From Acidimicrobiales bacterium (GTDB taxonomy: Bacteria > Actinomycetota > Acidimicrobiia > Acidimicrobiales > AC-14), in the NCBI GenBank assembly GCA_036260295.1, contig DATAAD010000082.1, positions 9,965 to 73,964 on the forward strand: a DNA stretch of 64,000 nt. Direction: 5' to 3'. The notes under the pieces were generated by a model. The model searched no databases, was not told where the DNA came from, and saw nothing but the letters and a program-made list of their open reading frames with translations. Positions 24,033-59,423 of this stretch are shown here, in pieces. Within the stretch, counting starts at the first letter, position 1; every line of letters starts with the position of its first letter. A program made the position numbers and the translations under genes.

Positions 24033-24034
24033 CC

Positions 24035-36782: not shown

Positions 36783-36807
36783 AGCTGGGCGCCACCGCCC
36801 CCGGACC

Positions 36808-37686: not shown

Positions 37687-37785
37687 GGCAGCCCGCCCGG
37701 GGGACCGAGACGCGACCGCGACGCGGCGGTGACGGCAACGTGATGCGCCGGTGCGAGAGTCGCCTGGCGTCGGTGAGGAGGGGAC

Positions 37786-38628
37786 ATGGCGAATGCGGTT
37801 GCTCGGGGGAACGGCCCCGTCGAGGTCGTCAACGCGAGCGGAGCCCTGATCTCGATCCCGTTGAGCTCGATCACGTTCGACGACACCGGCCGCGCCGTCG
37901 GCAGCGGTCAGCTCTATGCCGACAACCAGGCCCTCCTCGACCCCTACCTGGCCCGCCTGGTCCGCGACGGGTTGCTGGAACCGGGACCGCAGCCACCGCC
38001 GGTGCCGATCCTCGTCATCACGGCCAAGACCGCAGGTGCCATCGGCAACGACATCAGCATCGGCTTCGCCAACCTCCGCCCCGACCCGTCGGACAACACC
38101 AGGAAGGTCTTCGACGCCACCCTCACGCAGGTCGACACGTACCGCGACCTCGTGGCGGACAACTCGATCAAGGCCGTCCTCGGCAGCTCCACCGGCACCG
38201 GCAGTCGCCCCGGACTGGTGTTCGTCTCCAGCGGGGCTGCCCCCATCTCGCTTCCCAAGGTCGGCACCTACGCCCCGGACGGCGGGGGTGAGTTCACGAT
38301 CCCGAAGAGCACGGGGGCGGGCAACGCCTTCAAGCTGAAACTGCGAGCGGTTGACGCGGCGGCGACGAGCTCGGTCGAGATCCTGTCCTCGACGGAGGAC
38401 CCCGCGCCCGGCCGGTTTACCTTGGTCGCCAGCTGGTCCCGGACCATCGTCGGGGTGAAGGTGACGGACCTCGACTCCGCGGCCAACTTCGGGCCCTTCA
38501 TCACGGTGAAGGGCCCCGACGGCACCTCCCCACCGACCACGCCGCCACCCCCAGGGTCGGTGGTGCTCTCCGGCGGCTCCGACCAAGCCGCCGCCCAGCC
38601 CGCATCGGCAACGGTGACCGCCCCCTGA
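37786..38628 (+). CDS. hypothetical protein, first gene of the CIS operon
   Basis: GAGGAGGGG RBS. 280 aa with a Pro/Thr-rich C-terminal tail. I recognise no family. Confidence 0.6.
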   Translation: MANAVARGNGPVEVVNASGALISIPLSSITFDDTGRAVGSGQLYADNQALLDPYLARLVRDGLLEPGPQPPPVPILVITAKTAGAIGNDISIGFANLRPDPSDNTRKVFDATLTQVDTYRDLVADNSIKAVLGSSTGTGSRPGLVFVSSGAAPISLPKVGTYAPDGGGEFTIPKSTGAGNAFKLKLRAVDAAATSSVEILSSTEDPAPGRFTLVASWSRTIVGVKVTDLDSAANFGPFITVKGPDGTSPPTTPPPPGSVVLSGGSDQAAAQPASATVTAP

Positions 38629-38668
38629 GGGGCACGCCACAACAGCACCGGCCGCTCGAGGAGGACCC

Positions 38669-40210
38669 ATGCCAGTCACCCCCACCTATCCGGGCCTCTA
38701 CTTGGAGGAGCTGCCGAGCAACGCCCGCACCATCACGGCCGCGCCGACGTCGGTGGCCGTGTTCGTGGGCTACGGGCACCCGTACAAGACCCGGCAGCCC
38801 GACGTCGCCGTCCGGATCTTCAGCTTCACGGAGTACGAGCGCGAGTTCGGAGGGCTCTTCGCCAGCGGCGTCTTCGACCCCAACCTGGGGCACGCCGTCA
38901 ACCAGTTCTTCCTCAACGGCGGCTCCGTGGCCTGGGTGGTCGGCGTGCAGGCCAGCTATCGGACGAACACGGGCAGCATCATCGCCCCCGACCCACCGCC
39001 CGGGCCGACGGCGACGATCGGCGGTCTCGTCTTCACCGGCCGGGAGCCGAGCGACATGGTCGAGATGCGGGTGACGATCGACAACGTGAGCGGCACCACG
39101 GGCGACATTACCGTCACCTACGGGGCGGTGATGTTGGAGACGTACCGCGGCGTGAGCGTCGACCCGGCGGATGCGAACTTCGTCGAGACGGTCCTCGGCA
39201 CCGCTTCGAGTCCGAGGTCGGCTCTCGCCACCGTGGCCCCTACTCCGGGACCCGCCTACCCGGCGACGATGCCGGCGGGCTCCCAGCCGTTCAGCATGAA
39301 CCTCCCGGCCAACCTGGCGACGACGTTCAGCGCCGCCGACTTCGGCCCGGTCTTCGCCGCCGACAGCTCGCTCGACAAGGTCGACATCTTCAACATCCTG
39401 TGCGTCCCCGGCATCGCCGATCGCGACGTGCAGAGCAGGGCGCTGGTCTTCGCCGAGCGCAAGCTCGCCTTCATGGTCGTGGACCCTCCCCCCCAAGCCA
39501 TCGCCGACGGCGGGAGCCCGGCTTCGATGGAGACGCTGGTCGGGATCGTCCCGAAGAGCACGAACGGCGCCCTCTACTTTCCGTACCTGATGACGACGAA
39601 CCCGCTCACGGGCCTGCCGATGGCACTCCCGCCGAGCGGCTTCGTCGCCGGCAGGTACGCCGACACCGACCTCCGGCGGGGGGTCTGGAAGGCCCCGGCC
39701 GGGCTGGAGACCCAGATCGCGACGGCGTCGGGTGTGGCCCCGACCGGGCAGATGACGAACCAACGGCAAGGTGTCCTCAACGAGCTGGGGGTCAACTGCC
39801 TCCGGACGTTCCCCGATTCCGGCACCGTCGTCTTCGGAGCGCGAACTCTCGTGACGGCGAACGACGCCTTCCAGCAGTGGCGCTACGTGCCCGTCCGGCG
39901 CATGGCTCTGTTCGTCGAGCAGACCCTGCTGCGCAACCTCGGGTGGGCGGTGTTCGAGCCGAACGACGTGCCCCTCTGGGACGCGCTGCGCACGACGGTG
40001 AACGACTTCATGCTGGGCCTGTTCAACCAGGGGGCGTTCCAGGGGGAGGCGCCCAGCCAGGCGTTCAAGGTGGTCTGCGACCGCACGACGACCACCCAAG
40101 CCGACGTCGACAACGGGATCGTCAACATCATCGTCGCCTTCCGTCCGTTGAAGCCGGCCGAGTTCGTCATCATCAAGATCGCCCAGCTCGCCGGCCAGAC
40201 GCCGGGATGA
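38669..40210 (+). CDS. contractile tail sheath protein (Afp2/Pvc2/Cis2-like)
   Basis: Canonical sheath N-terminus MPVTPTYPGLYLEELPS...VAVFVGY and C-terminal domain GVNCLRTFPDSGTVVFGARTL. Confidence 0.9.
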   Translation: MPVTPTYPGLYLEELPSNARTITAAPTSVAVFVGYGHPYKTRQPDVAVRIFSFTEYEREFGGLFASGVFDPNLGHAVNQFFLNGGSVAWVVGVQASYRTNTGSIIAPDPPPGPTATIGGLVFTGREPSDMVEMRVTIDNVSGTTGDITVTYGAVMLETYRGVSVDPADANFVETVLGTASSPRSALATVAPTPGPAYPATMPAGSQPFSMNLPANLATTFSAADFGPVFAADSSLDKVDIFNILCVPGIADRDVQSRALVFAERKLAFMVVDPPPQAIADGGSPASMETLVGIVPKSTNGALYFPYLMTTNPLTGLPMALPPSGFVAGRYADTDLRRGVWKAPAGLETQIATASGVAPTGQMTNQRQGVLNELGVNCLRTFPDSGTVVFGARTLVTANDAFQQWRYVPVRRMALFVEQTLLRNLGWAVFEPNDVPLWDALRTTVNDFMLGLFNQGAFQGEAPSQAFKVVCDRTTTTQADVDNGIVNIIVAFRPLKPAEFVIIKIAQLAGQTPG

Positions 40211-40226
40211 GCTGAGGAGGGGCGCC

Positions 40227-40739
40227 ATGTCCAAGCCGTTCAGCGTCAACGCCAACCGGTTCGAGCCGTATTCGACGTCGCGCTTCGTGATCTTCTTCGA
40301 GAAGTCGACCACGCCGGTGGCCGGCGTGAGCAAGGTGACGGGGATCAAGCGGTCGACGGACCCCATCGAGTACAAGGAGGGAGGGAACCCCCTGGCCCGC
40401 AAAGGGCTGGGACGTACCAAGTACGAGCCGATCACCCTCGAGCGGGGGGTCACCCACGACACCACCTTCGAGGAGTGGGCCAACGCTCCCCAGGTGCTTG
40501 ACACCGGAGCGGCGACGGCAAGCCTGAAGAACCTGAGGAAGAACATCCAGATCGTGTTGCAGAACGAGCGCGGCCAGATGGTGCACCGCTACCTCGTGTA
40601 CCGCTGCTGGGTGTCGGAGTACCAGGCGTTGCCCGACCTGGACGCCGGGGCCAACGCGGTGGCCATCGAGCACATCAAGCTCGAGCACGAGGGATGGGAA
40701 CACGACCTCAGCGTCTCCGAGCCGAACCAGAACGTGTGA
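40227..40739 (+). CDS. tail tube protein (T4 gp19 / Afp1-like)
   Basis: FVIFFEKSTTPVAGVSKVTGIKRSTDPIEYKEGGNP...KYEPITLERGVTHD, typical of the conserved phage tail region/gp19 family. Confidence 0.85.
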   Translation: MSKPFSVNANRFEPYSTSRFVIFFEKSTTPVAGVSKVTGIKRSTDPIEYKEGGNPLARKGLGRTKYEPITLERGVTHDTTFEEWANAPQVLDTGAATASLKNLRKNIQIVLQNERGQMVHRYLVYRCWVSEYQALPDLDAGANAVAIEHIKLEHEGWEHDLSVSEPNQNV

Positions 40740-40740
40740 C

Positions 40741-41520
40741 ATGCCCTCGGTCCGCCTGCACGTGAGCGGGCTGGAAGTCGAGGTCCGCCAGCCGGCAGGC
40801 GCCGAGGACGTCCTCCTCGCCGAGGCCTGGTCGTTGGACGCGGCGCTGGCGGTCGAGCTCGTCAGCCGGGTCGCGGCACCGGCGGGCGCCGGCGCGCCGG
40901 AGTGGGCCGACCTCGTCCACACCGACCTCGATGCGCTCCTCCTGGTCGTGCGAGCAACGGTCTTCGGCGACGTCATCCGGTCGGACGTGGTGTGCCCTGC
41001 GGTCGACTGCCAGGCCCGGGCCGACATCACGTTCGGCATCGGCGACTACCTCCGGCACCACCGGCCCCGCCCGCCCCGCCGGGTCCATCCCGCCGCCGAG
41101 CCGGGCTGGTACCTGCTCGACGGCGCCGCCGTCCGGTTCCGGCTCCCGACCGCCGCCGACCTGCTGGCCGCCGCCGCCGAGCCGCGACCGGACGAGGTCC
41201 TCCGCGCCCGCACCACCTCTCCGTCCCGACTACCCGCGCCGTTGCGCCGACGGGTGGACGCGGCCATGGCGGCCCTGGCCCCCCCGCTGGTCGACGACCT
41301 GCTGGCCGCCTGCCCCGAGTGCCACCAAGCGTTCACCGTCCGGTTCGACCCGCGGGAGTACTGCCTGCGCGAGCTCCGCGCCCAGGCACTGTCCGTCTTC
41401 GAGGACGTCCACCTGCTGGCGTCCGCCTACAACTGGCCAGAGCAGGAGATCCTCGCCCTTCCCCGCTCGCGTCGCCTGCTCTACGCGGAGATGGCGAGGG
41501 AGGAACGCGGGCCGGCCTAG
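40741..41520 (+). CDS. hypothetical CIS protein with two Cys pairs (zinc-ribbon-like)
   Basis: Starts 2 nt after the tube gene. CPAVDC...and...CPECHQAF...C. Occupies the position of a tail assembly chaperone in phage tail modules. Confidence 0.6.
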   Translation: MPSVRLHVSGLEVEVRQPAGAEDVLLAEAWSLDAALAVELVSRVAAPAGAGAPEWADLVHTDLDALLLVVRATVFGDVIRSDVVCPAVDCQARADITFGIGDYLRHHRPRPPRRVHPAAEPGWYLLDGAAVRFRLPTAADLLAAAAEPRPDEVLRARTTSPSRLPAPLRRRVDAAMAALAPPLVDDLLAACPECHQAFTVRFDPREYCLRELRAQALSVFEDVHLLASAYNWPEQEILALPRSRRLLYAEMAREERGPA

Positions 41521-41521
41521 C

Positions 41522-42346
41522 GTGGCGCGGACCGGCTACCTCGCGCTGGTCGCCCGGGTGCCGGGTGGCACGGGGCCGGTGCTGGCTCCCCCGCGGCCGG
41601 CGTTCCGGCGGCCGGAGGCCCGCCCCACCGGCCCGGCGCGCCCACCCGCGCCCCGCCCACCCGCGGGCCGGACGAGCCCACGCTCGGCGGTACCGGTCAC
41701 GGCCGGGCCGGCCGAGGTGGGAGCACGGCCCCTCCCGGCGGTCCCGCCGCCGGGAGAAGCCTCCCGAGGCACCAGGGGGTCGCCGCTCGCCACCGCGGGG
41801 GTGGCGGCACCTCCCGCCCCCCTCCCACCGCACGTCGTCCTGCCGGCGATCGACCCGCCTCGGTCGCGCGCCGACGTCCGGCGGCCGCGCCCGGGGTCGC
41901 TCCAGCCCAGCGGAGCCGACCGCGTGGTGGCCGGACCGGCCCCGAAGACGGGCGCGGGCCGCGAGGCGGTGGCGACGACCGGCGGGCCACGGCCGCCCGT
42001 TCCCGCCGCGTCCCCGGCGGCCGGCCCTCGCGGCCCTGAGGAACGCTCGCCCGGGGCGCTCTCGCCCACCCCTGCGGCCCCTGCACCCGCGGTCGCCCAG
42101 CCCCCGGCCGAGCCGCGCCGCCCGACCGTGCTCGAACCTCCCGCCCCGGTCGCACCCGCCATTCCGTCCGGACGCCCGCCGGAGGTGCGGATCGGGTCGA
42201 TCGAGGTGATCGTGGAGCCTCCGGCGGCGGCCGCCTCGCCGCTGCCGCCCGCGCCGCGGCCGGCCCCGCCGGCCGCGGGGCCCGGAGCCGGCTCCACCCC
42301 CCTCTCCCGCGGCTACTCCGCCCGATTCGGCCTCCGGCAGAGCTGA
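41522..42346 (+). CDS. proline-rich CIS protein (possible tail length determinator / tape-measure analogue)
   Basis: GTG 2 nt after the upstream stop. Short structured ends (YLALVARV...; EVRIGSIEVIVE...SRGYSARFGLRQS) flank a long Pro/Ala-rich low-complexity region. Confidence 0.5.
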   Translation: MARTGYLALVARVPGGTGPVLAPPRPAFRRPEARPTGPARPPAPRPPAGRTSPRSAVPVTAGPAEVGARPLPAVPPPGEASRGTRGSPLATAGVAAPPAPLPPHVVLPAIDPPRSRADVRRPRPGSLQPSGADRVVAGPAPKTGAGREAVATTGGPRPPVPAASPAAGPRGPEERSPGALSPTPAAPAPAVAQPPAEPRRPTVLEPPAPVAPAIPSGRPPEVRIGSIEVIVEPPAAAASPLPPAPRPAPPAAGPGAGSTPLSRGYSARFGLRQS

Positions 42347-42357
42347 GGAGGTGGCAC

Positions 42358-43638
42358 GTGGCCCTCGCCCCGCTCGGCACGCTCGACCTCTCGGTGGTCA
42401 CCGACCGCCTGCTGGCGATCATCCGCGGCGGCATCACCACCTGGCCGCTCTGGGACGTGAACGGTGGGCCGATCGCCAGGTTCGACATCACCTCGACCGG
42501 CTCCATGCCCGAGACCGTCCGGGTGGCCGGGGGCTGCCACCTCAACCTCTACCTCCTCCATGTCCGAGAAGACCCCTACCAACGCAATGCGCCGGTGACC
42601 GGGCGCAGCCTCCCGGTCCCCCTGCAGCCCATGAGCCTGCAGCTCACCTACCTGCTCACCGCCTTCAGCGGCGAGGACTACCGCCAGGAGCAGCGGGCCA
42701 TGAGCATCGCCCTGCGCGCCCTGTACGAGAACCCGATCGTCCGGATGACCGTCGTCATCGCCGGCGTGAACGTCGACGAGGAGTTCACCGTCCAGATGCA
42801 GGCCGAGAGCCCCGACGAGCTCGGCCGTGTCTGGCAGGCGATCAGCGCCCCCTTTCGCCTGGCCACGGTGTACCGGGCGAGCGTGGTCTTCGTCACGCCC
42901 GAAGCCCCGGCGACGGCGTCCGCGCCACCGCCGGAGCGGGTCGTCCTGGCTGCGGCGCCGGCATCGCTCCCGTTCCTCGCCGGGGGGCAGGTGACGGGGA
43001 CGTCGTCCGTCGTCACGTACAAGGCGCCGGACAGCACGGTGGCCGACCCTCGGGAGCTGACCTACCACCTGTCGCCGGCGACGGTGGCGCGTGGCGGCCG
43101 GTTCCGCCTGCTCGGCGGCAACCTCGGCGGCTCGACCTCGGCGCGGGTCTTCCTGCTCCCGGCCTCCGGCGGCGAGCAGGAGGTCACTGCGTGGGTGGAC
43201 TCGGCCGAGTCGACGCCGTCGAGCATCACCTTGGAGGTCCCGGCGGCAGGTGCGGTGCCCCCGGCCGGGGTCCACCGGCTCTCGGTCGGAAGCGACGCCG
43301 CCCTCGGCGACCCGGAGACCTTCCGGTCCAACACCACGCCGTTCAGCATCTCCGCCCGGGTAGGGCCGGCCGCCAACCCACCCCTGCTCGCCCCGGTCGC
43401 CGGCACCTACACCCTGTCCGGGGGCGGCTTCGTGGCCGCCGCCACCGACGTGCTGGTCGGAACCGTATCCCTGTCCCGGGTGACGGTCGCGCCCGGGCCC
43501 GGGGAGTTCCGCGTCGTCAGCCCGGCGACGATCACCTTCCAACTCCCGGCCGGGATGCCTTCCGGCACCCGCCACGACGTGCGGGTCCGGGTGAACGACG
43601 TCGAGTCGGCGCCGGCTTGGTGGGTGGTCGTGCCATGA
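42358..43638 (+). CDS. DUF4255 (Pvc16/Afp16-like) tail terminator/cap protein with C-terminal Ig-like extension
   Basis: N-terminal LDLSVVTDRLLAII...LNLYLLHVREDPYQRN...LQLTYLLTAF, typical of DUF4255. An extra ~220 aa carries two IPT/TIG-like repeats. Confidence 0.75.
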   Translation: MALAPLGTLDLSVVTDRLLAIIRGGITTWPLWDVNGGPIARFDITSTGSMPETVRVAGGCHLNLYLLHVREDPYQRNAPVTGRSLPVPLQPMSLQLTYLLTAFSGEDYRQEQRAMSIALRALYENPIVRMTVVIAGVNVDEEFTVQMQAESPDELGRVWQAISAPFRLATVYRASVVFVTPEAPATASAPPPERVVLAAAPASLPFLAGGQVTGTSSVVTYKAPDSTVADPRELTYHLSPATVARGGRFRLLGGNLGGSTSARVFLLPASGGEQEVTAWVDSAESTPSSITLEVPAAGAVPPAGVHRLSVGSDAALGDPETFRSNTTPFSISARVGPAANPPLLAPVAGTYTLSGGGFVAAATDVLVGTVSLSRVTVAPGPGEFRVVSPATITFQLPAGMPSGTRHDVRVRVNDVESAPAWWVVVP

Positions 43639-45710
43639 GCGTCGGCGACGTCCTCGAGGCCACATGGCGCCCGGACGCGCCGGCCCTCCTGACGCGGGTA
43701 CGGGCCCGGGCCCGGCGCCGGGCGCTCTGGCTGCGCCACCTGTGGTCGCACTGGCGGGTGGAGGGCGACCAGTGGCTGGCCATCTCCCACGGCGAGGTCG
43801 ACCGAATCCTCATCGGGTGCGAGGAGCTGGCCGCGAGCGAGCTGTCGTTCTACGCCACCGATCCAGGCTGCCTGGAGCTGTCGGCGGCTGTGAACGCCTC
43901 CGATCGCGCCGTCGCCGCCGACCCGGCCTGGGCCTGGCTCCAGCAGGACCTCGGCCTCGACCCGGCCGAGGCCGATCTTCTCGCCCTGGCCCTGGCCGCG
44001 GAGATCGACCCCTTCCTGCGCCGGGCCTACGGCTACCTCCTCGACGAGACCGGGCCGGCCGACGCCAGCCCGCTGCTGGCCTCGGCGCTCTTCCAGTGGG
44101 CGCCTGAGCACGACCCGCGGGTGCCGGCCGCGCTGTTGCGATGGGCTCTGGCCAGACCGTCGGACCCCGGCGCCGACCCGGCGGCACGGTCGACCGGATG
44201 GGTCGCCGACCCCCTGCTCGTTCCCTGGCTCGCCGGGAGGGGAGACGGCCTGGGCACGGACGAGGAAGGCGCGGTGCGGCGGGTGGCGGCCGGCGGGCAA
44301 CGGGACGGTCACTGCCTCTACCCGGACCTCCTCGACGCCATGGTGGCCTTCGTCCACGCCGTCGGCGGCCCGACGCTCCCGGCGGTCGAGCTCGAGCTGG
44401 CCGGCCGGCCCGGCGACGGCAAGCGCACCCTGGCCGGCCAGCTCGGCGACCGTCTCGGCCGCGCCGTCCTGGCCATCGACGTGGCCCGGCTCCTCTCGGG
44501 CGACCTGCTCGGCCACCAACCGATCCAGCAGGTCGTCAGGGTGGGCCGCAGCGCCCGCTTGAGTGGGGCCATCCCCTACTGGCACGGCCTCGGCGGCGTG
44601 GACGCGGCGGTGATCGACCGCCTCCGGGGCCTGGCGCCCATCGCCGTCCTCGGCGTCGTCGACCCCATGCCGGTGGCCGCCCGCCCGGACGTGGTCCGGC
44701 GGGCCTTCCGGCTCCCGCCCCTGCGCCGAGCGATGCGGCTCGGGCTGTGGCGTCGGCTCTCGCACCTCCCGCCCCCACCCGTGGTCGACTGGGACCTGAC
44801 CCCGGCCGAGTTGGCCGCCGCAGCCGCAGCCGCGCCCGCCGGCCCGGAGGCCGTGGCCGAGTCCTGCCGACGCGTCCTGTCCCTCGGGCCGGGCGAGCTC
44901 TTCAACCCCCTTCCGTGCCCCTACGCGTGGGACGAGCTGGTGCTGACCCCGCCCGTCCGTCGCCATCTGGAGGAGTTCGAGGTCCAGGCCCGGCTGCGGC
45001 GGACCGTGTACGAGGAGTGGGGATTCGGGCGGCTGACGCCGCTGGGCGGCGGGGTCACCGCCCTGTTCGCAGGGCCGAGCGGCACCGGCAAGACGATGGC
45101 CGCCCAGGTCGTGGCCCGGTCGCTGGGGATGAACCTCTACCGCGTCGACCTGGCCGGCGTGGTGAACAAGTACATCGGCGAGACGGAGAAGCGGCTCAAG
45201 CGGGTCTTCGACGCCTGCGAGCGCAGCGACGTCGTCCTCCTGTTCGACGAGGCCGACGCCCTGTTCGGGCAGCGTACCCAGGTCCGAGAGGCCAACGACC
45301 GCTTCGCCAACATAGAGATCGACTACCTGCTCCAGCGGATGGAGCAGTTCGAGGGCGTCGCCGTCCTGACCACCAACCGCAAGAGCGACATCGACAAGGC
45401 CTTCCTGCGACGCCTGCGGTTCATCGTCGACTTCATCGCGCCGGGGCCGGAGGAGCGGCGGCGACTCTGGCACCTGGCGTTGCCGGACCGGGCGCCCGAC
45501 GGCACGCCGCTGCTGGAGGACATCGACTGGGACCTCCTTGCCACCCGCCTGGAGATGTCGGGAGCGGACATCAAGGCGGCCGCTCTCGCAGCTGCCTTCT
45601 TGGCCCGCGACGAGGGGGCCAGGATCGGCATGGGCCACGTGATGCACGCCGCCCGGCGGGAGCTGACCAAGCACTCCGCAGAGCTCCACCACGGCAGCTG
45701 GGAGGTCTGA
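43635..45710 (+). CDS. AAA+ ATPase (Afp15/Pvc15/Cis15-like)
   Basis: ATG overlaps the upstream stop. Walker A GPSGTGKTMAA, Walker B VVLLFDEADALFG and second region of homology TNRKSDIDKAFLRRLRF. A long N-terminal region lacks a P-loop. Confidence 0.9.
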   Translation: MSVGDVLEATWRPDAPALLTRVRARARRRALWLRHLWSHWRVEGDQWLAISHGEVDRILIGCEELAASELSFYATDPGCLELSAAVNASDRAVAADPAWAWLQQDLGLDPAEADLLALALAAEIDPFLRRAYGYLLDETGPADASPLLASALFQWAPEHDPRVPAALLRWALARPSDPGADPAARSTGWVADPLLVPWLAGRGDGLGTDEEGAVRRVAAGGQRDGHCLYPDLLDAMVAFVHAVGGPTLPAVELELAGRPGDGKRTLAGQLGDRLGRAVLAIDVARLLSGDLLGHQPIQQVVRVGRSARLSGAIPYWHGLGGVDAAVIDRLRGLAPIAVLGVVDPMPVAARPDVVRRAFRLPPLRRAMRLGLWRRLSHLPPPPVVDWDLTPAELAAAAAAAPAGPEAVAESCRRVLSLGPGELFNPLPCPYAWDELVLTPPVRRHLEEFEVQARLRRTVYEEWGFGRLTPLGGGVTALFAGPSGTGKTMAAQVVARSLGMNLYRVDLAGVVNKYIGETEKRLKRVFDACERSDVVLLFDEADALFGQRTQVREANDRFANIEIDYLLQRMEQFEGVAVLTTNRKSDIDKAFLRRLRFIVDFIAPGPEERRRLWHLALPDRAPDGTPLLEDIDWDLLATRLEMSGADIKAAALAAAFLARDEGARIGMGHVMHAARRELTKHSAELHHGSWEV

Positions 45711-45711
45711 G

Positions 45712-46694: not shown

Positions 46695-46704
46695 GGGGTC
46701 CCGC

Positions 46705-46989: not shown

Positions 46990-46992
46990 CGG

Positions 46993-48967: not shown

Positions 48968-48970
48968 GGG

Positions 48971-49345: not shown

Positions 49346-49346
49346 G

Positions 49347-51782: not shown

Positions 51783-51846
51783 GCGAGCACCGAAGTGGAG
51801 CGGAGGAACGAGGCACGGAGGAACGCGGCCCGGAAGGCGGCGGGGC

Positions 51847-54291
51847 GTGACCGAGACCGTCTGCCCGTGCGACGTGTTCGTCCATCCCCGGCTCCCCCTG
51901 AACCCGCCTGGGCGGTCCTCGATCTCCTACCGGGCGGGTGAGTTCGCCTCCTTCCGCCACGCCCTGTTGCTGGCCCGGCCCGGCGAGAGACAGCTGACCC
52001 GTTGGCGACCCAGCCCCAACCGGGAGCTTCCGGTCCACGACCTGGCGCTGCAGATGGTCGAGTGGTGGGCCTACGTGGCCGACGTCCTCACCTTCTACAA
52101 CGAACGAATCGCCAACCAGGCGTACCTCCGTACTGCCGACCTGCCCGAGAGCGTGAGCCGCCTCATCCGGCTGCTGGGCTACCGGCCCCGCCCGGGGATC
52201 GGCGCGACGGGCGTCGTCGCCGCCCTGCTCGGCGCCGCCGGCCCAGGGACCGGCACGGTCACGCTGCCCGAGAACTTCCAGATCCAGAGCAAGCCGGGGC
52301 CCGGGCGGCGACCGCAGATCTTCGAGGTCGACACCGGCACCGTCGTCGGGCGGCCCGAGGTCGTCGCCGTCGACCCGCCGCCCGACCCGGCCCTCGTCAC
52401 CGTCGTCGCGGGCGACGAGACGGTGCTGCTGTCGGGTGCAGCCTCGAACCTGGAGGCGGGCGACCGCGTCCTCGTCCTGCCCGCCGGCTGGACCGGGTCG
52501 GGGGCGTTGACGCTGGCCACGGTCAAGTCGGTCACCGAGGAGCGCTTGCCTCGAGGCGCGCCGGCGACCCGGGTCGCGTTCTCCTCCCCGCTCGGGTTGG
52601 GCGGGGCGCAGGCCGCCGGCTACCGCGTGCTGCGGTCTACTCTGACCGCCCGATTGTGGCCCTACGCGGCCAACGCCGCCGTGGTCGTCACCTCGGCGAG
52701 CGCCCACCTCGACTCGGTGCACCGGCTGCTCGCGCCCGGCGACCCCGTCGTCCTCGAGGTGCCCGGAGGGGCCGCCGAGGAGCGGCGGCTGCTCAGGGTG
52801 GGAGCGACCAGCGAGCTGGTGTGGTTCGCCAACGGCAACCCGGCCGATCCGGCCACACCGCGGACGTCCCCGCCGCTCGACGCCAAGGAGACGCTCATCG
52901 GCATCCCCCACACCGTCGTGGGCTTCGCCGACCCGCTCCCCGGCGCCGACGTCAGCGCCCTCGGCGCGGTCAAGTCGAGCCTGGTGGCTGCCTTCGGGTG
53001 GCAGGAGGTCGGCCGGCCCATCCCCCGCCCGGCCCGCTCGATGGCCGTCGGCGACGCCCCCCTCGTGCTCACCGCCGTCGACGGCGCCGCTCTCCCGCCC
53101 ATGGGAGCCGGCGTGCCCGTGCTGGTCGAGGACGGGAGCGGCGCGGGCGTCCGGGGACTGGCCGCGGCCGGGACGGCCCCCGGTTCGGTCTCGGTGAGGG
53201 CCGCCACCCCCGCCACGACGCTGCACCCGCCCCTCCGGGCCCTCTTCGGGGTGGTGGGCGTCTCCCGGGGGGAGACCGTCCCGTTCGAGGTGCTCGGCAG
53301 CGGCGACGCCACCAAAGCCGTCCAGGTCTACACCCTCAAGCAGTCGCCGCTCACCTACCTGCCCGATCCCGACCCGTCGTCGTCCTCGCCGTACCGCAGC
53401 ACGCTGGAGGTGTTCGTGGACGGGGTTCGCTGGACGGAGGTCCCCAGCTTCTACGACCGGGGCCCCGGGGATCGCGTCTTCGTGACGCGCGAGATCGAGG
53501 ACGGGCACACCCAGGTGGTGAGCGGCGACGGCGTGCACGGGGCCCGGTTCCCATCGGGCTCCAACAACGTCACCGCGGCGTACCGGCACGGCAGCGGCGC
53601 CGTCTCGCCCGGCCCCGGCGGCCTCAGTGTGATCGTGAGGCCCCGGCCCGGGCTGAAGGCCATCCGCAACCCCGTCGCCGTCGGCGGCGGGTCCGACCCC
53701 GACCCGCCCGACCAGATCCGGCGTTACGCGCCGAAGTCGGTGCTCACCTTCGGCCGGGCCGTCTCGGCCGACGACTACGAGACCATCGCCGTCCAGGCCC
53801 CCGGCGTGGCCCGGGCCCGCTCCTACTGGGGGTGGGACGGGGGGCAGCAGCGTGCGGTGGTCACCGTCTTCGTCGGCGACGACGATGCCGCGGTCAGCTC
53901 CGCCGAGGTCGCCTTGGCCGCGGCCGACGACCCCAACCGGCCGGTCGTCGTCCGCCTGGCCACGCCCGTGACCGCCGGCCTGTTCCTCGCCTTCCGGTCG
54001 GACGGCTCCCGGCCGCGCGCCGCTCTGACGGCCGAGGTGCGAGCCGCGCTCTCGGCGCCGAGCGGGTTGTTCGGCGGCGAGGCGACTCGCATCGGCCACG
54101 GCGTCTACGAGAGCGAGGTCGACGGTGCCTGCCTGGCGGTGCCCGGCGTGGTGGCCGTCCACCGCCTCGTCTTCTTCGTCGACCGCGGGACGGGGTTCCA
54201 GCTCGAACCGGGGCCCCGGTTCGATCCCGGCGTCGGCGCCTTCTTCACCCTCTCACCCCAGCTGCTGTTCGTGTTCCAGGAGGGAGGCTGA
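51847..54291 (+). CDS. baseplate J-like protein, paralog 2
   Basis: NPVAVGGGSDPDPPDQIRRYAPKSVLTFGRAVSADDYETIAVQAPGVARA is a second Baseplate_J signature. GTG start. Confidence 0.8.
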   Translation: MTETVCPCDVFVHPRLPLNPPGRSSISYRAGEFASFRHALLLARPGERQLTRWRPSPNRELPVHDLALQMVEWWAYVADVLTFYNERIANQAYLRTADLPESVSRLIRLLGYRPRPGIGATGVVAALLGAAGPGTGTVTLPENFQIQSKPGPGRRPQIFEVDTGTVVGRPEVVAVDPPPDPALVTVVAGDETVLLSGAASNLEAGDRVLVLPAGWTGSGALTLATVKSVTEERLPRGAPATRVAFSSPLGLGGAQAAGYRVLRSTLTARLWPYAANAAVVVTSASAHLDSVHRLLAPGDPVVLEVPGGAAEERRLLRVGATSELVWFANGNPADPATPRTSPPLDAKETLIGIPHTVVGFADPLPGADVSALGAVKSSLVAAFGWQEVGRPIPRPARSMAVGDAPLVLTAVDGAALPPMGAGVPVLVEDGSGAGVRGLAAAGTAPGSVSVRAATPATTLHPPLRALFGVVGVSRGETVPFEVLGSGDATKAVQVYTLKQSPLTYLPDPDPSSSSPYRSTLEVFVDGVRWTEVPSFYDRGPGDRVFVTREIEDGHTQVVSGDGVHGARFPSGSNNVTAAYRHGSGAVSPGPGGLSVIVRPRPGLKAIRNPVAVGGGSDPDPPDQIRRYAPKSVLTFGRAVSADDYETIAVQAPGVARARSYWGWDGGQQRAVVTVFVGDDDAAVSSAEVALAAADDPNRPVVVRLATPVTAGLFLAFRSDGSRPRAALTAEVRAALSAPSGLFGGEATRIGHGVYESEVDGACLAVPGVVAVHRLVFFVDRGTGFQLEPGPRFDPGVGAFFTLSPQLLFVFQEGG

Positions 54292-54293
54292 CG

Positions 54294-56402
54294 TTGGCCG
54301 GCGACCACGACCACTACGAGGCGTACTACGCCGACCGGCTCTGGGCCCTGGTCCCCGCCGTGTACCGGGAAGAGGACGCCGGCCCGGACGGGACCACCGG
54401 CCCCTTGCGGGAGCTGGTGGACCGCGTCGGCGCCCAGGTGGCCGTCGTCCGGCGCAGCGTCGACCGGCTGTGGGAGGACCAGTCGATCGAGACGTGCGAC
54501 GACTGGGTCGTCCCGTACATCGGCGACCTGCTCGCCACCAACCTGGTCGCCGCCCTCGACGGCCGGGGCCAGCGCATCGACGTGGCCAGGACGATCTACT
54601 ACCGGCGCCGCAAGGGGACGCTGGGGATCCTGGAGGAGATCGCCTCCGACATCACGGGGTGGCACGCACGCGTCGTCGAGTTCTTCCGCACGATGGAGCG
54701 GAACCGGCACTGCCTCGACCCGGCGATCGGCCGTCCCGCCGACACCGCCGAGCCCGCCGCCCACCGCGACCTCCAAGCCGCGCAAGGGCTCGTCGGGCGG
54801 CGGACGTCGACCCCGCTCGGCGGGTACGCCGACCTGCGCGACGCGTACGGCTCCAGCCGGGCCCACTCGGCGTTCGACGAGTACTCCCACACCGCCGACC
54901 TCCGGGCCCCCCGGGGCCGGTCGGGGTGGCACAACATCCCCCGGCTCGGCGTCTTCCTGTGGCGCCTGCGCAGCTTCGCCGTCGTACTCGGGACGCCGGT
55001 CCCGGTCGCCGGCTGTCCCGGTCACTTCACCTTCGACCCGACCGGGCGCCTCGTCCCCCTCTTCGCCAAAGGGGGGCACCGCTTCGGCGACGACTGGGTC
55101 TCGCCGGAGGAGTGGCAGCTGCCCACCCCGATCGACCGGCGACTCCTGGACGCAGAGCGGGACCGCCTGTACCCGGCGTCGATCGAGGCCCTGCACCTCC
55201 AAGGCACCTTCTTCGACGGCGTGCCGTCGAGCATGGTGACCCTGCACCCGGAGCTGGGACGCTTCTCCGTCGGGCCCCCGCTGGCCGGCGACACCTTCCG
55301 GGTGGACTACCACTACGGCTTCTCGGCCGCCATCGGTGCCGGGCCCTACGACCGGCGGGTGGCACGGCGCAGCGTCGAGCCGCCGCCCTCGCCGGTGACG
55401 ACGGTCTCCGGCGGGGGCAACGTGCTCGCTGCCGCGGTCACGGGCCTCACCACCGGCACGGTGGTCGTCGGCGACTCGGCCACGTACGACGCGGTCGCCG
55501 ATGTCGGCACCGCGGCCGCCGGCATCCAGCATGTCCGCGTCGCGGCCGGCAACCGGGAGCGGCCGGTCGTCCGCCTGGCCGGCCCCGCGGCCTGGGCGTT
55601 CACCGGCGAGGACGGGTCCCGCCTCGATCTCACGGGCCTGCTGGTGAGCGGGGCCGATGTCGTCCTGCGGGGTCGCTTCGACACCGTCCGGATCTCCTCC
55701 TGCACCTTCGACCCCGGTGGCTCGGGCCTCGACCACCTTCCCCCTGCCGTCCTGGCCACCGCGGTCGACGGACGCGCCCTGGCGCCGACCAGGCTGTGGG
55801 TAGAGGCCCAGGTCCGGCGGCTGGAGGTCGCCGACTCCATCCTCGGTCCCGTCCGCACCCGAGCCGGCGGCGACGTCGGCGAGCTCGTGGTCCGCGACAG
55901 CATCATGCAGGCCGTTCGAACCACCGACCAGGGGTCCGGCCAGCCTCCCGACACGGTGCTCGACCTGGCCAGCGGCGGTGTCGTCCTCGACCGGTGCACC
56001 GTGCTCGGTCCGGGCCGGGTGCACCGCCTCGACGCCAGCGAGTGCGTCCTCGACGACGTTCTGGCGGTCGAGGACCGCCAGAACGGCTGCGTCCGCTTCA
56101 CGGCCTGGGCCACGGGCAGCACCCTGCCCCGCCGGTACGAGTCGGTGGAGGTCGCACCCGGAGCGTCGCTCTTCACCAGCCGGGTCTACGGCCACCCCGG
56201 CTTCTGCCAGCTGCTGGGTCACGTGGACCGGCGGATCGTCGCCGGCAAGACCGGCGCGTCGATCGCCGAAGGCGGCCCCCTGGGGTCCGAGATGGGTGCC
56301 TTCGCCCGCGAGCTGGGACCGGTCCGCCAGCGCAGCATCCGCATCAAGTACCAGGAGTTCATGCCGCTCGGCCTCGACCCTGCCGTCGTGAACGTGACGT
56401 GA
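54294..56402 (+). CDS. baseplate wedge protein (P2 gpI / Afp12-like phage tail protein)
   Basis: TTG at 54294 after AGGAGGGAGG. YYADRLWALVPAVYREED...CDDWVVPYIGDLLATNLV... is typical of the gpI-like family that follows Baseplate_J. Confidence 0.7.
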   Translation: MAGDHDHYEAYYADRLWALVPAVYREEDAGPDGTTGPLRELVDRVGAQVAVVRRSVDRLWEDQSIETCDDWVVPYIGDLLATNLVAALDGRGQRIDVARTIYYRRRKGTLGILEEIASDITGWHARVVEFFRTMERNRHCLDPAIGRPADTAEPAAHRDLQAAQGLVGRRTSTPLGGYADLRDAYGSSRAHSAFDEYSHTADLRAPRGRSGWHNIPRLGVFLWRLRSFAVVLGTPVPVAGCPGHFTFDPTGRLVPLFAKGGHRFGDDWVSPEEWQLPTPIDRRLLDAERDRLYPASIEALHLQGTFFDGVPSSMVTLHPELGRFSVGPPLAGDTFRVDYHYGFSAAIGAGPYDRRVARRSVEPPPSPVTTVSGGGNVLAAAVTGLTTGTVVVGDSATYDAVADVGTAAAGIQHVRVAAGNRERPVVRLAGPAAWAFTGEDGSRLDLTGLLVSGADVVLRGRFDTVRISSCTFDPGGSGLDHLPPAVLATAVDGRALAPTRLWVEAQVRRLEVADSILGPVRTRAGGDVGELVVRDSIMQAVRTTDQGSGQPPDTVLDLASGGVVLDRCTVLGPGRVHRLDASECVLDDVLAVEDRQNGCVRFTAWATGSTLPRRYESVEVAPGASLFTSRVYGHPGFCQLLGHVDRRIVAGKTGASIAEGGPLGSEMGAFARELGPVRQRSIRIKYQEFMPLGLDPAVVNVT

Positions 56403-56414
56403 GGAAGGAGCGGC

Positions 56415-59400
56415 ATGGGCAGTGACCGAGCTCGCGTGTCCTACGACAAGACCCGGCAGTACCGCGCCGTGGTGGCGCAGCAGGGGCGGGTGGCGTTGGA
56501 GGCCGACACCAACGAGGGATGGACGATCGGCGCCGAGGAGGCCCGCGAGGAGGCCCTCGACTTCGTCGGACCGGTGGGGACACCCGACGACGGCTACGCC
56601 CTGTCCCCTACCGGCGGCGGGACGTACGACTTCGTCATAGGGCCCGGGACCATGTATGTCGGCGGCGTCCGGACGTCCCTCGCCGACTTTGTGAAGTACA
56701 GCGCCCAGGACGAATGGCTCGACCGCGACGGCGACCCCGACTGGGTGCCCGTCTCCCCGCCGGCCGATCACGGGAGCGCCAGCGAGCTGATCTACGAGGA
56801 GCTGCGCGAGGTCGAGGTGAGCGCCACCGAGGACCACGCCCTGCGCGAGGTGGCCCTCGGCGGTCCCGACACCTCCCAGCGGAGCCGGCTCGTCCAACGG
56901 ACGAAGCGATTCGCCACCGACGCCCGTACCTGCAGTGCAGCCCTGGACGACCTCGCCGCCCACTGGCTCCAGCGCGGCCTGCAGTTCGACCCGGGCACCA
57001 TGCGGCTGCGGTCCTCGGCCACACTGAAGGCGTCGTACCCACCGGTGCCCGCCCCCGCCGACCCCTGCGAGCCCGACGCCCAGAACGGCTACCTGGGCGC
57101 CGACAACCAGCTCATCCGCGTGCAGATCGCGTCGTGGGACGAGGCCAACCACCGAGGGACACTGCTGTGGGGCTTCGACGGCGCATCCTTCCTCTACCGG
57201 GTGACGGTGGTGAACCCCAACCTCGTCCGCCTTCTGTCGAGGCCACCCGACGACGCCCACCAGCCCCGGCCCAACCAGGCGGTCGAGGTCCTGCGGACGG
57301 CGGCCCGGCTCAGCCCCGCCGAGCCCGGCAACGTGGTGGCGTCGCCAACCGGAGCGGTCTTCACCCTCACCGGCGCCTACGTCCCGGACACCCAGCAGGT
57401 CGCCCTCCCGGGGGGAGGCCTGCCGGCCGCCTACCTCGACGGGGCCAAGACGCCCGCGGTCTTCCTGCGGGTCTGGGAACAGGCACTGCCCTTCACCCGG
57501 GGGACGGCCGTCCCCCTCGGCGGGACCGGGCTGCGGGTCACGCTCGACATCACGGGGGCCGGGACCTTCAGCCCGGGCGACTACTGGCTGGTGGCGGTAC
57601 GGCCCAGCACGCCCGAGCTGGTCTACCCCCACCGGTTCCTGGACGTCCCTCAGCCCCCTGACGGCCCCCGGCTGTGGGCCTTCCCGCTGGGCGTCGTCGA
57701 TTTCGTGCCTCGACCAACCGGCACCGACAAGGTGGTAATGACCGTCCTCGAGGACTGTCGGAACCGCTTCGAGGGGTTGGTGGAGCTGACCCGACGACGC
57801 GACACGGGATGTTGCGACGTCGTGGTGCGCGCCGAGGACCTCGACGACACCAGGACACTGCAGACCGTCCTCGACCGGTTCGCCGACCGAGAGGCGGTGA
57901 CGATCTGCCTCAAACCCGGGCGCTACGAGCTCCGGGCGCCGCTGAAACTCGGCCCCGAGCACTCCAACTTCACGATCGAGGCCTGCCACGACGGCGCCGT
58001 CCTGGCTGCCGCCCCGGGCACGGCCGACCGTTTCGGGGAGGGCCTGGTGGTGCTCAACCGGGCCAACAACGTGACGCTCAGGGGCCTGCGGTTCCTCCTG
58101 CCCCAGGTCCGGCTTCGAGCCGCCGACCATCTGACCACGGCTGCGGGGATGCGGCGGGCCGCGGGCGACCAGTTCGCCAACTTCAACATCTCGATCGGGA
58201 TCCGGCCCGTCCATTGCGCCGTCCTGACCGTCGAGAGCTGCCTGTTCCGCTTCTCGGTCGAGCCCGAACGTGACTGCTTCTCGGCCGGGATCTTCGCCGC
58301 CAGCGAGTGCTGGGGCCACGTCGTCCGCAACAACCGCTTCATCCGGGACGAGGACGCCCTCCGTGTCGACGAGTCGCCGGTTCGCCTGCTGTACGGCTAC
58401 CTCCTCACGTCCTCCCTGTTCAGGACGGCCAGGCAGGACTACGTGGAACCCTGTCTGCTCCAGGACGCATCCTTCCAGGACAATCGGTTCGAGGGGCTGG
58501 CGGGGGCGGTGCTGGTGCAAGGCGAGCTCGGGCTCATCGAGCTCGAGAGCAACACGGTTCGCGACTGCATCAACGGGTTCGTGTTCCTGACCGACGCGGC
58601 GGCCGCCGCGCCGGTGATCACTCGCAGCGTCGTCGTCCTCGCCCACCAACAGGACGAGGCCAAGGAGCTGCAGTCGGGGATCGTCAGCCCGCTGCAGTCC
58701 CCGGTGGCCAAGCTGGGGACCCAGCTGGCCCGCGCGTACACCCTCCCCGCGGACTACACCAAGGCCGGCATCGCCGTCGACGACGAGGTGGGGGCCAAGG
58801 CCGAGGAAGCGGTCCTGGCCGCCTACCAGCACTTCTTCGACAGCACGCTGTCGGCCGGCCCGCCGAGGGCGGCGACGGACGAGGCGGCCGCCGGCGGCAA
58901 GAAGCTGGGGCCGGCATCGGGTCCGCCCGAGTACGACTGCCTGTACAGGAGCCGGGCCATGGCCAAGAACGAGTCCCTGGACTCCCGGCTGGTACGCGCC
59001 AGCCGGGTGGTCTTCGGCGGGTTCAGACGCCACGGCCTCCGACTGTCCCTCCGGGTCACCGGGAACGACGTCGCTTCGCTCCTCGAGGACGGCGAGTCGG
59101 GGTCGAGCCTGCTGGTCTACGGCGAGCGGGGCCAGCCCGGCAACCTGACCATGGTCGGCGGCCGGTTCCGCAATCGCTCGCCGCACTCGGTCACGGTCGG
59201 CGCCTTTCTGGTCGACACCTGTGCGGTGGCCGGCAACGTCGTGGTGAACGAGACGGGCGTCAGCATCTTCCTCCTCCCGGGCTCGGGTGGAATCGCCGCC
59301 CGAGGCAAGGAGACCGTTGCCGTGACCGGCAACGTCTTCGAGGGACGGACCCAGCTGCCGCCGCGTCCCGGCGCCCTTCCTCCTCCCATGAACCAGTGGA

Positions 59401-59423
59401 ACTCCTACAACGCCGTCGTCTGA
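56415..59423 (+). CDS. DUF6519-like N-domain fused to right-handed beta-helix repeats (candidate distal baseplate / target-recognition protein)
   Basis: N-terminal YDKTRQYRAVVAQQGRVALEADTNE (QQGRV.L.AD.NE motif). The C-half has repeated NN-x-T/V-hydrophobic-x-G/N turns (NNVTLRGLRF, RNNRFIRDE, QDNRFEGL, ESNTVRDCINGF, VAGNVVVNE, VTGNVFEG). Confidence 0.65.
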   Translation: MGSDRARVSYDKTRQYRAVVAQQGRVALEADTNEGWTIGAEEAREEALDFVGPVGTPDDGYALSPTGGGTYDFVIGPGTMYVGGVRTSLADFVKYSAQDEWLDRDGDPDWVPVSPPADHGSASELIYEELREVEVSATEDHALREVALGGPDTSQRSRLVQRTKRFATDARTCSAALDDLAAHWLQRGLQFDPGTMRLRSSATLKASYPPVPAPADPCEPDAQNGYLGADNQLIRVQIASWDEANHRGTLLWGFDGASFLYRVTVVNPNLVRLLSRPPDDAHQPRPNQAVEVLRTAARLSPAEPGNVVASPTGAVFTLTGAYVPDTQQVALPGGGLPAAYLDGAKTPAVFLRVWEQALPFTRGTAVPLGGTGLRVTLDITGAGTFSPGDYWLVAVRPSTPELVYPHRFLDVPQPPDGPRLWAFPLGVVDFVPRPTGTDKVVMTVLEDCRNRFEGLVELTRRRDTGCCDVVVRAEDLDDTRTLQTVLDRFADREAVTICLKPGRYELRAPLKLGPEHSNFTIEACHDGAVLAAAPGTADRFGEGLVVLNRANNVTLRGLRFLLPQVRLRAADHLTTAAGMRRAAGDQFANFNISIGIRPVHCAVLTVESCLFRFSVEPERDCFSAGIFAASECWGHVVRNNRFIRDEDALRVDESPVRLLYGYLLTSSLFRTARQDYVEPCLLQDASFQDNRFEGLAGAVLVQGELGLIELESNTVRDCINGFVFLTDAAAAAPVITRSVVVLAHQQDEAKELQSGIVSPLQSPVAKLGTQLARAYTLPADYTKAGIAVDDEVGAKAEEAVLAAYQHFFDSTLSAGPPRAATDEAAAGGKKLGPASGPPEYDCLYRSRAMAKNESLDSRLVRASRVVFGGFRRHGLRLSLRVTGNDVASLLEDGESGSSLLVYGERGQPGNLTMVGGRFRNRSPHSVTVGAFLVDTCAVAGNVVVNETGVSIFLLPGSGGIAARGKETVAVTGNVFEGRTQLPPRPGALPPPMNQWNSYNAVV

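Follow-up and report, generated by a model that had tools for sequence, protein, structure and literature searches.

The window analysed here is a stretch of 64 kb from an 81,307-bp contig of a metagenome-assembled genome (MAG) of an uncultured Acidimicrobiales bacterium. It carries an island of 26.0 kb that encodes an extracellular contractile injection system (eCIS) with its own tail fibre. We think it probable that the island is a horizontally acquired eCIS of the lineage with DUF6519/eBAP5 fibres and that it works in the way proposed below. A released particle targeted by its fibre is more likely than a cytoplasmic one of the Streptomyces type because a fibre gene is present, no transmembrane segment was recognised in the island and the sheath is far closer to orthologues from other phyla than to the Streptomyces sheath. 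An earlier note on this DNA had described a complete eCIS/CIS-type cluster that is not a type VI secretion system (T6SS). This description was upheld, and all defining eCIS parts were recovered. The features of the island are given with positions counted from the first letter of the window.

35337..61364, no strand: whole island, 26.0 kb, between the convergent genes ispE and bS22
35400..36782, + strand: upD, DUF4157/eCIS_core protein of 460 amino acids, cargo or toxin candidate 1 (PF13699 2e-29, HELAHVAQQ)
36931..37686, + strand: BTAD (SARP-type) transcriptional regulator, directly 5' of g1 (PF03704 3e-18)
37786..38628, + strand: g1, conserved protein of 280 amino acids, first gene of the operon (orthologues 5' of the sheath gene in the loci L001, L002, L030 and L032)
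38669..40210, + strand: g2, sheath (PF04984 9e-11, PF17482 1e-6)
40227..40739, + strand: g3, inner tube of the gp19 type (PF06841 1.2e-35)
40741..41520, + strand: g4, T4_baseplate-family protein with two Cys pairs, assembly or hub-associated (PF12322)
41522..42346, + strand: g5, Pro/Ala-rich protein, tape-measure-like candidate (25% Pro, conserved C-terminus)
42358..43638, + strand: g6, tube/sheath cap Pvc16_N (DUF4255) with an Ig-like C-terminal extension (PF14065 5e-25; TIG 4e-4, residues 350-414)
43635..45710, + strand: g7, AAA+ ATPase at the Afp15/Pvc15 position (PF00004 1.3e-28; Walker A at residue 480, Walker B at residue 534)
45712..45960, + strand: g8, conserved protein of 82 amino acids at the Afp6/Cis6 position, from which alone its role is judged
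45960..46694, + strand: g9, CIS_tube-family protein, tube initiator or adaptor (PF19266)
46705..46989, + strand: g10, conserved protein of 94 amino acids (LysM-like residue pattern only)
46993..48123, + strand: g11, hub half of a split VgrG, gpD/gp27-like (Phage_GPD 6e-4)
48120..48635, + strand: g12, spike half of the split VgrG, gp5/gpV OB domain (PF04717, Phage_base_V, 2.6e-21)
48632..48967, + strand: g13, PAAR-like tip of the DUF4280 family (PF14107 via orthologues)
48971..49345, + strand: g14, sheath initiator or wedge of the gp25 type (PF04965, GPW_gp25, 2e-13; 9gtp_V 1.7e-13)
49347..51782, + strand: g15, Baseplate_J/gp6-like wedge 1 (PF04865 7e-5, above the Pfam cut-off)
51847..54291, + strand: g16, Baseplate_J/gp6-like wedge 2 (TIGR02243 1.7e-43; phrog_219, baseplate wedge, 6e-21)
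54294..56402, + strand: g17, wedge or fibre-adaptor candidate with a gpI-like N-terminus and a beta-helix-like C-terminal half (weak matches)
56415..59423, + strand: g18, tail fibre or tailspike, DUF6519 (eBAP5) anchor with a right-handed beta-helix (PF20129 2.7e-11, residues 1-65)
59502..61313, + strand: dnD, DUF4157/eCIS_core protein, cargo or toxin candidate 2 (PF13699 1.4e-31, HELTHVLQQ)

The genes were called by third-position GC bias together with their translation. The lists of open reading frames (ORFs) were noisy because the GC content of the window is 72%, and promoter and terminator scans were uninformative in such DNA. By exact protein look-up, the 18 genes g1 to g18 correspond to HEX2047665 to HEX2047681, with one small or low-complexity gene left uncalled by PGAP; g5 or g8 may be the gene that was skipped. 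Two starts were revised, that of g13 to 48632 (ATG) and that of g17 to 54294 (TTG). After these corrections, the 18 co-directional genes on the + strand between 37786 and 59423 were confirmed with gaps from -4 to +64 nt, which are in order 40, 16, 1, 1, 11, -4, 1, -1, 10, 3, -4, -4, 3, 1, 64, 2 and 12 nt. The motifs quoted in the earlier note were all present in the translations, with MPVTPTYPGLYLEE at the N-terminus of the sheath and GPSGTGKT (residue 480) and VLLFDEADALF (residue 534) in the ATPase. The extent of 18 genes thus stood, but the boundaries had been drawn too narrowly: the BTAD regulator and the two DUF4157 genes flank the operon, and the whole 26-kb block is inserted when measured against close relatives. 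For the genes without a clear family match, orthologues were gathered from 75 related loci that had been found with g15, and these were then scanned.

In profile hidden Markov model searches, Pfam recovered the sheath, tube, cap, ATPase, OB spike, gp25, Baseplate_J and DUF6519 families, and the PHROGs contributed only the labels wedge, hub and tailspike. The best solved relatives of the sheath g2 are the S. coelicolor CIS sheaths 8bky (3e-56) and 8bl4 (1e-53), followed by 9ezm (4e-51) and Pvc2; Afp2/3 and All3325 are among the further solved CIS sheaths that matched. Among the matches listed, the orthologues from other phyla were 57-72% identical to g2 (E about 1e-183 to 1e-237), compared with 3e-56 for the Streptomyces sheath, whose monophyletic clade is IId of dbeCIS. 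For the cap g6, the sequence search against the PDB gave no match. The families of g4 and g9 were assigned with the help of their orthologues. PF12322 reached 0.014 in the window protein g4 and was found in 15 of 22 orthologues (best 8e-9), and a weak match to phrog_150 (baseplate hub) was also seen; the two Cys pairs of g4 are CPAVDC and CPEC. PF19266 reached 0.0025 in g9 and was found in 23 of its 29 orthologues.

No family match was obtained for g5 and g8, yet both are conserved across many loci and are real genes. In g5, the C-terminal motifs vHIGsIEV...LSRGFxSxFGLRQG are nearly invariant in about 30 loci, and the length of the protein varies up to about 360 amino acids. A tape measure of the Afp14 type was not recognised by family match in the cluster; g5 stands where one is plausible and might, as a conjecture, be the tape measure. 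Small ORFs like g8 with the motif IDRLTL...GL...A.rLA lie between the ATPase gene and g9 in many loci. The protein g10, with a mean column identity of 61% over 53 orthologues, had been called LysM-like. Its profile found neither LysM nor any other match in the PDB and none of its orthologues matched Pfam LysM, such that the residue pattern is what is left of this name.

When g11 and g12 were joined, they aligned end to end with single-chain spikes of the VgrG/Afp8 type, namely with residues 15-504 of 9rce_F (2e-13), with 7aef_q of AlgoCIS and with 7b5h_AJ of the thylakoid-anchored contractile injection system (tCIS). Hub and spike are hence encoded by two separate genes here, the gpD-like hub and the gp5-OB spike of the earlier note. 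The PAAR-like tip g13 was likewise supported through its orthologues, 16 of 29 of which matched PF14107 (DUF4280; best 4.5e-6), with the window protein itself below the threshold. The two Baseplate_J proteins g15 and g16 held up by Pfam, TIGR02243, PHROG and PDB profile evidence; the profile of g16 matches the Baseplate-J-like chain 9gtp_1K of S. coelicolor (5e-7) and also gp6. The gpI-like nature of g17 was not confirmed. TIGR02242 reached 0.006 in the window protein and recurs as a weak match in 15 of 44 orthologues, one orthologue matches tail_P2_I, and none matches Pfam Tail_P2_I. The profile of g17 gave only a weak match to a beta-helix lyase in the PDB (profile positions 360-466), and single-sequence PDB searches with g15 to g18 gave nothing useful. 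The gene is conserved in 69 loci, and a function as fibre adaptor is conjectural.

No capsid, portal, terminase, lysis, integrase, TssJLM or ClpV gene was found in the 64-kb window, as had been noted before, and no prophage is visible there; beyond the window, the absence of phage-, lysis- or T6SS-related genes can be judged only from the synteny with the related loci L078-L081, where the corresponding genes are housekeeping ones (L25, Pth, Mfd). With no head, portal, terminase, TssJLM or ClpV gene in the window, the prophage and T6SS readings were rejected. For T6SS types i-iii, a single phage-type sheath gene was found and the TssB/TssC, TssJLM and ClpV families were not found in the window. 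A defective myophage tail or an R-type tailocin, which would carry no cargo and kill by puncturing the membrane, would account for the phage-derived sheath, tube, baseplate and tailspike and for the fold of g18, which matches phage tailspikes. However, the Pvc16_N cap, the dedicated AAA+ ATPase and the two eCIS_core proteins are markers of eCIS and not of tailocins or phages (PMC8213781, PMC12210884). The window has neither a lysis cassette nor an integrase, a head gene or a helical tape-measure/chaperone pair, and the same block is present without phage genes in about 70 genomes. We regard a tailocin or tail remnant as very improbable.

The earlier note had recognised no tail fibre. We identify g18 as the fibre or tailspike because its position, its anchor domain, its pattern of conservation and its fold agree. 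The DUF6519 domain at its N-terminus is eBAP5, one of the five baseplate-anchor domains of eCIS fibres, which was found in 658 genes in a 2026 catalogue (PMC12923769). Fibres with eBAP5 often end in beta-helix pectin-lyase folds, eBAP5 correlates with Actinobacteriota, and systems with eBAP3 and eBAP5 use adaptors of the Tail_P2_I type (PMC12923769). We found 1221 homologues of g18, and nearly all of the 120 listed carry PF20129. Among 65 orthologous loci, conservation of the first ~500 residues extends to more than 60, that of the last third to only 13-25. An AlphaFold2 model from 80 sequences (pLDDT, the predicted local distance difference test score, 86.7) shows the C-terminal half as a right-handed beta-helix. 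When this model was compared with the PDB by Foldseek, the tailspikes of Sf6, HK620, CBA120 and Dettilon, gp12 of phi29, polysaccharide lyases and a beta-helix adhesin were found. It also matches 110 viral predicted structures, many of them labelled tail spike, pectate-lyase or beta-helix. Independently of the model, the sequence profile of g18 matches the beta-helix adhesin 3zpp_A (3e-7).

A protein at the fibre position could also be an anchor. In a cell-anchored, contact-dependent system in the manner of the T6SSiv, the tCIS or the haloarchaeal systems, the particle would fire outward from the membrane of the producer and g18 would hold it there. The proteins at the fibre position of the Anabaena tCIS are such anchors, a 'shoulders' substructure is common to the tCIS crown and eBAP3-5 (PMC12923769), and the split VgrG aligns to the tCIS spike. 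Against this, no transmembrane segments are seen in g15-g18 or elsewhere in the island, membrane-complex genes were not found, and the distal part of g18 is a soluble beta-helix of the tailspike type that varies between loci. We therefore consider anchoring improbable and take g18 as the fibre of a probably free particle.

The first protein of the operon is related to the fibres of other loci. No match to g1 was found in Pfam, NCBIfam or PHROG, and a single-sequence PDB search gave nothing useful. In L007, L010, L015 and L022, loci of several Acidobacteria, the DUF6519 fibres contain in their distal part an internal domain to which residues 74-266 of g1 align with ~28% identity (E 1e-6 to 6e-10); in L007, this domain lies at 18669-19268. 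The g1-type domain is thus embedded in the fibre gene in these four loci, whereas the window, L001, L002, L030 and L032 encode it on its own, as the first gene of the operon.

The two genes at the edges of the island encode DUF4157 proteins. This is the eCIS core domain with an HExxH motif that Geller et al. found N-terminal in or beside eCIS toxins (PMC8213781). From this family association, the two proteins are presumably the cargo. A likely start of upD is the ATG at 35400 behind the ribosome-binding site GGAGGA, compared with the NCBI protein of 351 amino acids from 35727. For dnD, the NCBI start is 59838 (491 amino acids), and an upstream LQRACxC...C motif suggests an earlier one. In upD (35400-35700), in dnD (59502-59840) and in many homologues, a zinc-ribbon-like Cys motif LQRxCxCG...C..C precedes DUF4157, with a weak Zn_ribbon_6 match in the homologue P0270; the NCBI starts of upD and dnD are therefore probably too far downstream. 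Only the first 100-150 residues of both proteins are conserved across loci, the pattern that would be expected of exchangeable toxin carriers.

The C-terminal domain of upD follows after residue ~250 and comprises the last ~205 amino acids (36144-36779 of the window). It is Cys-rich and all-alpha and is 55-63% identical in more than 20 other DUF4157 proteins, with 14 invariant Cys. In many of these relatives, DUF4157 is separated from the C-terminal domain by an OmpA or PG_binding_1 module. The AlphaFold2 model is all-helical with a pLDDT of 95.1, and Foldseek found no credible match to it in the PDB (best E 0.34). A copper-storage or TenA-like helical bundle was considered and rejected (probabilities 0.02-0.16). 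An exhaustive HMMER scan of 1.84 billion representatives gave 77 matches, and those of full length are all C-terminal. The domain also caps three proteins with RHS repeats (P0322, P0330 and P0343), one of which has SLH domains. In RHS proteins, the extreme C-terminus is the usual site of exchangeable toxin tips. The upD domain has this signature and is a candidate for a polymorphic-toxin tip. In dnD, the last ~210 amino acids form a rarer domain, and the homologues P0268 and P0280 carry OmpA (PF00691) where residues ~190-265 of dnD align.

The 14 invariant Cys suggest that the upD domain folds in an oxidising compartment, and a DUF4157 cargo of another CIS showed activity in E. coli solely when it bore a periplasmic tag (PMC12210884). 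From the peptidoglycan-binding modules of the relatives and the disulfide-rich tip, we infer that the cargo acts in the bacterial envelope. The earlier statement that the target cannot be predicted was in this respect too pessimistic, since the cargo architecture points, by inference, to bacterial cell envelopes.

The boundaries of the island were fixed by comparison with an empty site. When the syntenic locus L079 was compared with the window by blastn, the flanks were 79-96% identical and 35337-61364 had no counterpart. In the relatives L078-L081, whose prs is at least 90% identical, the same housekeeping neighbourhood is found and bS22 follows 8 nt after ispE. Since the 26-kb block is absent from the same site in these close relatives, it is a discrete island, and its horizontal acquisition is part of the explanation that we favour. 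The empty-site comparison fixes the exact boundaries of the whole system. Chimerism of the contig is unlikely, for neither GC nor GC3 shifts at the junctions and the same relatives show synteny on both sides. Two features lie next to the right-hand end.

61367-61477, - strand: bS22, 36 amino acids, right-hand insertion boundary (MGSLIKKRRKRMRKKKHKKMLKATRWQRRAGR; Pfam COX24_C; DNA 96% identical to relatives)
61588-61661, + strand: tRNA-Gln, anticodon TTG, 220 nt past the right end of the island

A tRNA was the sole match in Rfam. At the ends of the island, a search for att-like direct or inverted repeats gave only GC-rich 10-mers, and the island has no integrase. A site-specific integration at the nearby tRNA-Gln was considered and is not supported by att-like repeats or an integrase. 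On the left-hand side, BTAD genes also adjoin the g1-sheath genes in L001 and L002, and BTAD regulators have been reported beside eCIS loci (PMC8213781).

In the rest of the window, an AfsR-like regulator of 1110 amino acids (Trans_reg_C, BTAD and AAA_16) is encoded at 4950-8282 on the - strand, 27 kb upstream; it shares its superfamily with the BTAD protein of the island. A second block of ~12 kb (20161-32112) is missing from the syntenic L079 and falls in GC to 0.66-0.68. Its predicted products are an AurF-like N-oxygenase, a GNAT protein, a PP-binding carrier, an amidohydrolase, a luciferase-like monooxygenase, a P450, DUF6072 and DUF5132 proteins and an HMA_2 ABC exporter, and the block looks like a small acquired biosynthetic and export cluster. 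At 33448-33797, an ORF of 84 amino acids has no family match. Relatives have a DPBB_1 (Rpf-like) protein of 214 amino acids between tatD and ksgA, which suggests that the ORF is a truncated or diverged DPBB_1 gene.

With g15 as the query, about 70 genomes were seen to carry orthologues of g9 to g18 in colinear order. The carriers include Acidobacteriota, Cyanobacteria (Nostoc, Microcoleus, Leptolyngbya), Archangium (Myxococcota), Chloroflexia and Planctomycetes. They also include Alpha-, Beta- and Gammaproteobacteria (Bradyrhizobium, Nitrosospira, Caulobacter, Paraburkholderia) and, from the Actinobacteria, Rhodococcus spelaei and a Kribbellaceae MAG. In L002, which is another Acidimicrobiales MAG, a system like the cyclic-oligonucleotide-based antiphage signalling systems (CBASS; SMODS, ThiF/JAB and SAVED at 1046-5679) adjoins the orthologous cluster, a context unlike that of the window. 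The lineage is widespread and horizontally mobile and is already catalogued by recent (2021-2026) eCIS surveys. A full-text literature search found no paper that names Acidimicrobiia together with contractile injection systems, and the searched literature contained no experimental study of a system with a DUF6519 fibre. What is new here is modest: the exact boundaries of the island, the split spike, the Pro-rich g5, the domain shared between g1 and fibres, and the toxin-tip candidate of upD.

We then weighed whether the particle would leave the cell. On the model of the cytoplasmic CIS-Sc of S. coelicolor, the particles would stay inside, fire under stress and kill or lyse the producer. CIS-Sc is without a conventional fibre and needs CisA/Sco4242, a membrane protein whose gene adjoins the baseplate genes (PMC10066040, PMC12237407). 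If the system of the window worked in this way, the DUF4157 proteins would hit the envelope of the producer itself and lead to altruistic death, release of extracellular DNA or an abortive defence. The host is actinobacterial, the best solved matches of the sheath and of gp25 are S. coelicolor chains, and the island has neither a lysis cassette nor an immunity gene. The peptidoglycan-binding modules in the cargo relatives could serve self-lysis, and the defence system beside the L002 cluster would fit as well. However, the window has a fibre gene that is conserved but varies in its distal part, and CIS-Sc is fibre-less and CisA/Sco4242-dependent. The hydropathy scan showed no convincing transmembrane segment in any island protein, and a CisA/Sco4242-like adaptor is therefore absent. 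The sheath is closer to the cross-phylum orthologues by the margin given above, the lineage is common to many unicellular diderm bacteria, and a disulfide-rich toxin domain would hardly be active in the cytoplasm. We conclude that a cytoplasmic mode of action is unlikely. The earlier note had held it as plausible as secretion; the premise of a fibre-less particle was lost with the identification of g18, and no CisA-like adaptor was found. That an actinobacterial CIS is fibre-less and cytoplasmic is not a safe assumption.

For the released, fibre-bearing particle, we propose the following course of events, the dynamics of which are taken from Afp, PVC and AlgoCIS by analogy. The operon would be turned on by the BTAD regulator. 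The baseplate, whose parts are supported by the sequences, would be built around the split spike with its hub g11, OB spike g12 and tip g13, together with g14, g15, g16 and g17. The fibre g18 would dock by its conserved DUF6519 N-terminal half, probably onto g17. Its variable beta-helix, seen in the predicted fold, may form a trimer and bind, perhaps also cleave, a surface polysaccharide. The tube would be started by g9, g10 and g8 and extended by polymerisation of g3, possibly along the Pro-rich g5. The sheath g2 would surround it, g6 would cap it, and the ATPase g7 may aid assembly or the loading of the cargo, putatively the two DUF4157 proteins. The particle would leave the cell by lysis, for which no genes are present. 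Binding of the fibre would then trigger the contraction of the sheath and drive the spike and the cargo into a neighbouring cell, where the cargo would most likely act on the bacterial envelope.

Several points weigh against this proposal. The system is known from the genes of a MAG alone. Genes for release, such as a holin or an endolysin, are missing from the island, and neither toxin candidate has an immunity gene next to it. The cargo status of upD and dnD depends on the DUF4157 family association and their toxin activities are putative, and the assignment of g17 as gpI-like is weak. Among solved sheaths, the one nearest to g2 comes from the cytoplasmic Streptomyces system, and it is conceivable that a beta-helix protein at the baseplate binds the wall of its own producer from within while the cell lyses.

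A bolder version can be formulated, in which a unicellular monoderm actinobacterium releases a fibre-bearing antibacterial eCIS, part of whose cargo is a toxin with a fold not described before. The Cys-rich, all-helical domain of ~205 amino acids in upD would be swapped between DUF4157 cargo and RHS proteins and be active only after disulfide formation in the target envelope, and g1 might serve as a further exchangeable subunit, for targeting or decoration. We put this forward tentatively and would sooner expect it to fail than to hold. If this is true, the activation in the target would make an immunity gene dispensable. In any case, the upD domain is the one fresh lead of this analysis, being rare, confidently folded and also found in RHS proteins.

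When compared with known systems, the island shares with CIS-Sc (8BKY, 8BL4, 9GTP) the actinobacterial host, the best solved matches for the sheath, gp25 and one wedge, and the AAA+ ATPase with the cap; neither system has an Afp13-type fibre or a typical helical tape measure. They differ in that CIS-Sc is fibre-less and cytoplasmic with the membrane protein CisA, whereas the window encodes the fibre-like g18 with DUF6519, a split VgrG and flanking DUF4157 proteins, and no CisA/Sco4242-like membrane adaptor or other membrane protein. From tailocins and myophages, the island is set apart by its lack of lysis genes and by its ATPase and cap.

The class I systems, Serratia Afp and Photorhabdus PVC, also have a sheath, tube, cap (Afp16/Pvc16), ATPase (Afp15/Pvc15), gp25, a gpJ-like wedge, a spike with a tip protein and, at the operon's edge, genes for cargo. 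They have three sheath genes compared with one here. In the window, the VgrG is split and followed by a PAAR-like DUF4280 tip, two large gpJ-like wedges are accompanied by g17, and the cap and ATPase genes stand in the middle of the cluster. In place of the adenovirus-like Afp13, the window has a beta-helix tailspike on an eBAP5 anchor.

The CIS of Streptomyces davawensis belongs to a clade that extends across Actinobacteria, Proteobacteria and Chloroflexota and is distinct from CIS-Sc, and its effector, which bears a DUF4157 domain, binds to both the spike and the tube initiator (PMC11126660). S. davawensis was absent from the 75 loci recovered with g15. Its effector Tme has 2247 amino acids, is tape-measure-like and has transmembrane helices and an EndA-type nuclease, whereas the DUF4157 proteins of the window have 460-600 amino acids, no transmembrane helices and other C-terminal domains. 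With the RHS and polymorphic toxins, the system shares the upD-type domain at the extreme C-terminus of RHS-repeat proteins. The carrier here is a DUF4157 eCIS cargo module and not an RHS cage, and no adjacent immunity gene is visible.

The eBAP5 subtype of eCIS was defined computationally (PMC12923769, Nat Commun 2026), and its representative here is likewise known from genes alone. The Tail_P2_I adaptor is weakly supported in the window, and the orthologues found here are mostly outside the Actinomycetota, in Acidobacteriota, Cyanobacteria and Proteobacteria. In both, a gene that starts with DUF6519 and ends in a beta-helix of the pectin-lyase type follows the baseplate genes, and the DUF4157 and Pvc16_N markers are present. 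The host here belongs to the Actinomycetota, the phylum to which eBAP5 has been linked. Before the fibre gene, the window has the gpI-like candidate g17 and no clear Afp12. Taken together, the island has a sheath with a gp19 tube, a Pvc16_N cap with an AAA+ ATPase, a baseplate with spike and tip, DUF4157 proteins at its edges and a downstream fibre, and is a complete, cleanly bounded example of a DUF6519-fibre eCIS in the class Acidimicrobiia.

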